From Octopus vulgaris (lineage: Eukaryota): a DNA stretch of 64,000 nucleotides. The stretch is taken from contig OX597835.1 in the NCBI GenBank assembly GCA_951406725.2, positions 36,952,001 to 37,016,000 on the forward strand, written 5' to 3'. Positions 493 through 749 of this stretch are shown piece by piece. A model generated the notes under the pieces. The model searched no databases. It had not been told where the DNA came from and saw only the letters and a program-made list of their open reading frames with translations. Position 1 is the first letter of the stretch. Each line of letters opens with the position of its first letter. The position numbers and the translations under genes are program-made.

Positions 493-749
493 TTATTTTA
501 TATTTTATATTATTGGAAAACCTATATAAATTGGCTGAAGAGTACTTGGTATCTTAAATCTGCTGTAATATTTACAGCTTTTAATAAAATGTTGTAGTAT
601 GAAACAATTGTACCAAATTACTGGAATCATTCTTGTTGCTTATTTTTGATTATAATCACCCCGCAATTTTTTATGGGTAACACCATACAAAATTCTGGTG
701 CATCTAAATTAAGTACCATATTCATTTGAATCTAAATTGTTGCTGACCT
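493..749 (+). mobile_element. Short (TA)n-flanked element carrying a hammerhead fold (Penelope-like/retrozyme-like, family H1)
   Basis: Bounded by (TA)n on both sides. About 590-750 is homologous to 59580-59755. Contains the hammerhead at 531-616. Confidence 0.75.
531..616 (+). ncRNA. Type I hammerhead ribozyme, canonical core, enlarged stem II
   Basis: TTGG(531-534)-CTGAAGA(535-541)-GTACT...AGTAT(596-600)-GAAA(601-604)-CAATTG(palindromic stem III)-TA-CCAA(613-616). Predicted cleavage after GUA at 612. Confidence 0.78.

Follow-up and report, generated by a model that had tools for sequence, protein, structure and literature searches.

The window analysed here is a stretch of 64,000 nucleotides of the Octopus vulgaris genome (contig OX597835.1, positions 36,952,001 to 37,016,000 of the forward strand), which contains two copies of a repeat family that carries a hammerhead ribozyme motif. 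Copy A (503–750, plus strand) is a 3′ unit of the family and consists of a leader, the hammerhead motif at 531–616 and a 138-nt tail behind the predicted cut site; contigs from public runs begin to match at 503–504, and their loose ends run into (TA)n. A repeat survey shows a (TA)n array to the left of copy A at 457–493 and another at its 3′ end at 750–831. Copy B, as revealed by sequence comparison, has two arms. The direct arm (59459–59581, minus strand) starts about 3 nt before the core, and the inverted arm (59580–59752, plus strand) is 5′-truncated, corresponds to element positions 577–749 and has the full 3′ end. The direct arm ends in (TA)n at 59445–59462 and the inverted arm in (TA)n at 59754–59820. 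An nhmmer search found no fourth family copy in the 64-kb window. The segment at 1–420 (plus strand), which we take to be a degraded Helitron-like Rep fragment with GPCG..NP, GCPLYRCR and DNRW motifs across frames, ends at the (TA)n to the left of copy A; its 47–370 frame has no Pfam match.

The motif at 531–616 (plus strand) is of the type I hammerhead class. Stem I (531–534/613–616) has four base pairs with at most a short, weak extension. The core comprises CTGAaGA at 535–541 and GAAA at 601–604, and the GUA triplet ends at 612, with cleavage predicted after A612. The conserved type I elements CUGANGA, GAAA and UH are all present in copy A, which bears out the statement of an earlier note that this copy retains every core nucleotide. 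Stem III is the palindrome CAATTG at 605–610. It lies within a self-complementary octamer at 604–611, found in both copies, that is predicted by folding to form a dimer interface; a short palindromic stem III that permits dimers is a trait of the minimal hammerheads of Penelope-like elements (PLEs). Basal stem II has 5 bp (542–546/596–600) and encloses 49 nt.

A descriptor with the spacing of 531–616 has one match in the window, as opposed to two matches in 400 block-wise dinucleotide shuffles. The core pattern was found at 74 loci in metagenomes, with 55 distinct matches, none of which has both a stem I and a stem II of at least 4 bp. These 74 loci were considered as homologues and rejected as chance matches; none is homologous, the best BLAST E value being 0.048. 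The combination of core and stems at 531–616 exceeds chance. An Rfam scan of the window shows no hammerhead family among 125 matches with E values up to 1; the best match, MIR2646, was dismissed, as it falls far below the gathering score and merely reflects the copy B hairpin. Searches of viral contigs with a family 22-mer and of metagenome contigs with a 25-mer gave no matches.

Copy B differs from copy A at 606/609, where stem III reads CGATCG, at 563/577, where a C-G pair is changed to T-A, and at the free core position N7, which the earlier note had correctly reported as CTGAaGA versus CTGAtGA. The note further claimed covariation between the two copies. Both double changes are real, but two sequences do not give significance: 127 of 500 shuffles match the observed double-change value, and slid controls show no double changes. 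It should be pointed out that CGATCG and CAATTG differ by exactly two CpG transitions, and therefore the stem III pair by itself proves nothing.

Contigs from four of 24 public runs (organism codes A, B, C and A) were aligned on 500–749 at 80% likeness, and 1885, 1248, 1110 and 51 contigs, respectively, match the family. Depth at 716–724 is 90, 10, 118 and 27 times that at 536–544 in the four runs, and depth at 509–517 is 1.0–2.5 times that at 536–544; summed contig depth is a rough proxy and not a copy number, and no single piece spans 500–749. Leader depth is at least equal to that of the 5′ half of the core, and thus the leader at 503–530 (plus strand) is part of the family, and it is this leader, not an inverted arm, that usually precedes the core. 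Several contigs start to match at 503–504, and loose ends behind 738/746 continue into (TA)n in all four runs. The repeat family is present at high copy in three organism codes, and its 3′ end is fixed on (TA)n. Among the joints listed, those to the opposite strand are at 525/611 and 580/693, with one contig each, and differ from the copy B joint at 532/577. In run X5, the loose letters before 503 (nine contigs) and before 590 (one contig) share one upstream motif, which resembles, with three mismatches, a SINE-like repeat that occurs four times in the window. Organism B possibly has a SINE-headed subfamily.

The contigs allow the variation of the family to be compared with the structure. With a threshold of 8% in a DNA run, at least 13 positions in 531–616 vary, and no variant is listed at the 11 core positions in the four runs, which by itself is not significant (P 0.15). 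Stem I variants are complementary: 533A is found at 52, 39, 45 and 35%, and 614T at 60, 22, 35 and 46%. The stem II variants 543C, 599G and 600C lie on one contig, X4 record 9, as determined by depth and distance-to-end arithmetic; this contig breaks the apical hairpin and keeps the core and the basal stem. Among helix variants, Watson-Crick pairing survives in eight of 11, against a null mean of 3.5 (P 0.005; P 0.017 when wobble is allowed), and two double changes are found (P 0.07); the helices were drawn after the variant letters had been seen, so these P values are optimistic. The two halves of the motif are mostly unphased, with depths that differ 4- to 22-fold. The three variants that break pairs are 542T, 592A (27–85%) and 598C (9–66%). 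Of these, 542T opposite 600T would give a U-U at the base of stem II, as in published motifs, and 592A and 598C may have partners in 5′ halves that are too divergent to align. CAATTG is dominant in each of the four runs, and at the 8% threshold the variants listed include no CGATCG and no intermediate; the stem III change therefore represents a single event at the subfamily level. In a diverged subfamily, seen in loose ends before 580 (nine and five contigs), a change from U-A to U-G leaves the apical hairpin paired. At the level of the family, RNA structure is probably under selection. The earlier note had drawn the same conclusion from the paired double changes; it finds its support in family-wide variation and not in the two copies.

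The family majority has 547C (86–100%) and 550C (97–100%); the T at each of these positions in copy A is a near-private C-to-T change. These two changes have a large effect on predicted folding. With 547C and 550C restored, the best fold of stem-loop II is one interrupted hairpin (z −4.5; 0 of 500 shuffles), and the pair probabilities of the basal helices are 0.95–0.97 with family letters. The predicted extended stem II is 59 nt in length (542–600, plus strand) and is composed of basal helices 542–546/596–600 and 547–552/589–594, a weak and variable middle helix, and the apical hairpin 562–568/572–578. By these models the insert is an extended helix and not a loop. The description of a structured loop II of approximately 49 nt therefore needs modification: the 49 nt are indeed inside a 5-bp basal stem, but in the family letters they are mostly helix. 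The unaltered stem-loop II of copy A has a z of −0.8 and a basal pair probability of 0.0.

Folding of 527–620 with family letters as an unconstrained dimer gives a minimum free energy (MFE) structure that is a double hammerhead with 58 of 58 pairs, at −43.2 kcal/mol, whereas two monomers give −36.2 kcal/mol; for the middle helix, this comparison uses the register of the stem-loop II fold. In the predicted double hammerhead, stems I and III are intermolecular and the core is open. The copy A dimer has seven of the 58 pairs, and 550C by itself restores the double hammerhead. When the distal 49 nt are shuffled, the double hammerhead is kept in 6 of 300 cases. With a tetraloop in place of the insert, the fold survives in 60 or 102 of the 256 cases; this rises to 123 of 256 if both basal helices are left. 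In these models the extension helps the fold but is not required for it. With leader positions 503–526 added, none of 12 folds has the double hammerhead as its dimer MFE; the long stem II persists in the family letters (0.66–0.99, once 0.29) and never in copy A. The leader at 504–530 is itself predicted to form a hairpin beside stem I, and it is the presence of this leader that removes the double hammerhead as best fold. Three core-closing helices, with the open end in stem I, are predicted for the family letters and not for copy A.

Copy A in its present state is a poor candidate for a ribozyme. Its hammerhead fold has a free energy of −5.5 kcal/mol versus an MFE of −16.2 kcal/mol, and basal stem II pairing is 0.0 in all four contexts that were folded. 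The proposal that this copy may still cleave is unlikely to hold, as the C-to-T changes at 547 and 550 abolish the predicted basal stem II and the window has no intact partner. In copy B the core is broken in both arms, where G12 is changed to T in the direct arm (at 59511) and to C in the inverted arm (at 59604); the GAAA core segment differs among all three arm copies of the window. The copy B arms are head to head and form a 77-nt inverted repeat of 96% identity with 44 nt between, and at the junction there is a short stretch of microhomology to the leader of copy A. When copy B is folded as a whole, the 3′ half of the motif is predicted to be hidden within an extended hairpin of −134.5 kcal/mol. 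Activity is unlikely for either copy in the window, copy A being predicted to misfold and copy B having lost G12 and forming the fold-back. The locus itself is ordinary and consists of two decayed insertions.

Copy A and the inverted arm of copy B share a 3′ end, which lies at the identical element position and on (TA)n. In the direct arm, about 95 nt of the family 3′ end are missing, and an internal TTATA leads into (TA)n. An internal palindrome at 647–671 surrounds TTATAA, and it is here that the direct arm ends; each of the four runs also shows a dip in contig depth at 662–670, and loose ends at 668 are seen in many contigs. The palindrome is possibly a second priming site or an endonuclease self-target.

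The fixed 3′ end on (TA)n, the 3′-biased depth, the head-to-head inverted copy and the palindromic stem III are consistent with the 3′ repeat of a Penelope-like, and more specifically Hydra-like, element. In the relevant sections of Craig et al. (2021; PMC8557442), PLEs are described with inverted 5′-truncated copies, one-sided tails of 30–40 bp and a preference for (TA)n. The family displays these traits of endonuclease-bearing (EN+) PLEs: 5′ truncation with a fixed 3′ end is seen in the loose ends and in the depth gradient, which is a rough measure; insertion is into (TA)n; and copy B is an inverted, 5′-truncated, head-to-head copy with a one-sided tail, of about 95 nt versus the published 30–40. 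Such a tail has been accounted for by two reverse transcriptase (RT) start sites (relevant sections of Frangieh et al., 2024; PMC11167929). Neither copy A nor copy B has an RT or GIY-YIG open reading frame attached to it in the window, and a partial tandem pLTR-ORF-pLTR arrangement is absent from the 64 kb; the contigs are too short to show one. A short open frame at 503–528 was considered as the end of an open reading frame and set aside, as by eye it does not resemble the C-termini of two complete Hydra ORFs.

The window contains other mobile element remnants. At 37240–37840 (plus strand) is a 5′ remnant of a canonical PLE open reading frame with a DKG motif and in-frame stops. Its best match is from Octopus sinensis (71%), and its relatives are 750-aa RT plus GIY-YIG proteins that, when full-length, have the canonical order of RT then GIY-YIG. 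This remnant was rejected as the autonomous partner of the family because it has no nucleotide similarity to it and no intact core is found nearby. A search of viral contigs found no relative of PLE protein P0004. A fold-back at 36390–36569 (92%), situated about 650 bp upstream of the PLE open reading frame, has one arm ending in TTATA that runs into (TA)n, and thus shows the copy B architecture with an unrelated sequence. Additional fold-backs are at 26910–27049, a near-perfect hairpin around an (ATG)n loop, at 57620–57851, which ends in (TTA)n, and at 58142–58270. An element at 17628–18113 has terminal inverted repeats of about 125 bp and telomere-like CCCTAA units in its middle. Two segments, 28358–28906 (minus strand) and 27231–27605 (plus strand), are presumably Tc1/mariner-like transposase remnants as judged by eye; neither has a Pfam match at the curated cut-off.

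As in the Hydra-clade hammerheads described in the relevant sections of Craig et al. (2021), the motif is of type I and near the 3′ end, with a 4-bp stem I and a stem III that is short and self-complementary; other shared features are a U-U or G-U at the stem II base, insertion into (TA)n and an inverted 5′-truncated copy (Penelope-13_HM). By hand count, 14 of the 25 Hydra families in File S2 have U-U at the stem II base. The Hydra clade has an octopus member, Hydra-1_Obim, whose motif is a different sequence, and four 12–13-mers of the present family have no match in the supplement. The 25 Hydra families have 12–26 nt between the core halves, in contrast to the 59-nt stem-loop II found here, whose predicted stem exceeds twice the usual length, and the present family has no open reading frame by which the clade can be placed. 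Long stem-loops II have a precedent in two spike-moss PLE-X1 motifs in File S2, which measure 54 and 48 nt by hand count; an inner hairpin is present in the 54-nt motif. However, these are plant EN-less elements that target 28S rDNA, with the motif near the 5′ end and marked as deviating, and they show no sequence relation. Eight Naiads, including Naiad_Ovul, are annotated with a hammerhead half core with halves 35–50 nt apart (Craig et al., 2021); these resemble the present family in the distant core halves, the cephalopod hosts and (TA)n, but are not reported there to close stems, whereas three helices are predicted here, and the supplement has no sequence match. Hammerhead searches, according to the same source, limit the core spacer to about 17 nt. 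The finding of a predicted 59-nt stem II in a high-copy family missed by Rfam suggests that PLE hammerheads are undercounted. Deletion of this arm with the core retained would offer a natural handle on protein-assisted cleavage. A report of 31 recently active Penelope-like families in O. vulgaris does not mention hammerheads in its main text (PMC13282606).

Another published set of hammerheads has a palindromic stem III, a short stem I, an enlarged helix II and predicted dimer action; it is made up mostly of solo copies, with opposite-strand pairs 100–700 bp apart, as is the case here. Helix II in that set is 7–8 bp, compared with about 20 bp in several segments here. Axolotl retrozymes (PMC7229834; bioRxiv 10.64898/2026.07.22.740005) likewise have no open reading frame, HHR_Amex2 has U-U at the base of helix II, and HHR_Amex1 is similar in its one-pair stem III with a palindromic tetraloop. 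Retrozymes are nevertheless tandem and have canonical loop 1–loop 2 contacts, whereas the window copies are solo or inverted. The motif belongs to a known class and would act like a dimeric PLE hammerhead; its stem II is unusually long, a feature with a plant precedent. In the literature covered, neither the present family nor any animal PLE with a 59-nt stem II is described; the many PLE hammerhead variants of Lunse et al. 2017 may include long-stem cases, and a published O. vulgaris repeat library may already contain the family.

The feature is probably best explained as the 3′ repeat (pLTR) of a Penelope-like family that targets (TA)n; the hammerhead in this repeat would have a predicted 59-nt stem II and cut as a dimer after GUA. 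A less likely alternative is a short retroelement of the SINE-like or retrozyme-like type, non-autonomous and at least about 250 nt long, which has its own hammerhead, borrows PLE enzymes and possibly has a SINE-derived head. The lack of any open reading frame, the several contigs that start matching at 503–504 and the SINE-like letters before 503 and 590 in run X5 are in keeping with it. On the other hand, the loose ends are short (median 9 nt) and position 503 may be just the truncation point of copy A. Tandem hammerhead repeats, a trait of non-LTR retrozymes, are also absent: the window copies form no tandem array, and no go-back joint is found among the contig joints listed. A non-autonomous DNA transposon of the MITE or fold-back type, with TIRs of about 170 bp around a 44-bp centre, would make the hammerhead incidental and the palindromes protein-binding sites. 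Copy B can indeed be read as two arms around a centre, flanked by TA runs; the window also contains true TIR elements and further fold-backs, and the GAAA of the core is different in all three arm copies. Against this, the family leader is not inverted and is at least as deep as the 5′ half of the core, no joint of the copy B type is listed, both listed opposite-strand joints being elsewhere, and the core halves span the centre and an arm and fold together. Terminal inverted repeats are not the family norm, given this leader and the variable inversion joints, and such a transposon is very improbable.

The two double changes could also be mutational artefacts, produced by CpG deamination in a palindrome or by hairpin-templated repair with no selection on RNA. 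The two CpG transitions in stem III fit this, as do the CpG transitions at 547 and 622 of copy A and the lack of significance with n = 2. Yet CAATTG dominates every run with no CGATCG or intermediate listed at 8% or more, the pairs 563/577, 533/614 and 543/599 are not CpG pairs, and helix variants are enriched for pairing, which leaves the artefact a quite improbable explanation. A further proposal concerns the stem II extension of a Penelope-type hammerhead, which might be a selected module, for example a site where an element protein or host factor licenses cleavage. The apical hairpin stays paired through both the 563/577 double change and the U-A to U-G change, and a tetraloop can replace the insert (60–123 of 256), so folding alone does not require the insert. 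In addition, the PLE hammerhead of Anolis cuts only with protein, and is dispensable for insertion in vitro (relevant sections of Frangieh et al., 2024). But the subfamilies diverge most in the extension, and 592A, 598C and X4 record 9 break pairs. A selected module is somewhat unlikely on this evidence; it is compatible with the Penelope-like 3′ repeat, as the sole difference is the role given to the extension.

Under the preferred interpretation of a Penelope-like 3′ repeat, reverse transcription of the element RNA would be target-primed at (TA)n and start from a fixed 3′ site; it would usually truncate the 5′ end early and sometimes invert. Two RNAs may pair via the self-complementary 604–611 sequence and cut after A612, and any cleavage would be slow or protein-assisted. 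The extension would serve mainly to clamp the weak, AU-rich basal helix of stem II; it may otherwise be tolerated because hammerheads of this class have no evident loop 1–loop 2 contacts.

A bolder and rather unlikely scenario gives the 59-nt stem II the role of a selected switch or protein-docking arm in a working hammerhead, borne by an abundant cephalopod family that depends on Penelope elements. The leader hairpin would hold the ribozyme off until the element RT binds the arm and two RNAs dimerise, and long-stem hammerheads of this kind would escape Rfam and descriptor searches. If this were true, many PLEs reported with a ‘half core’ alone would bear ribozymes.
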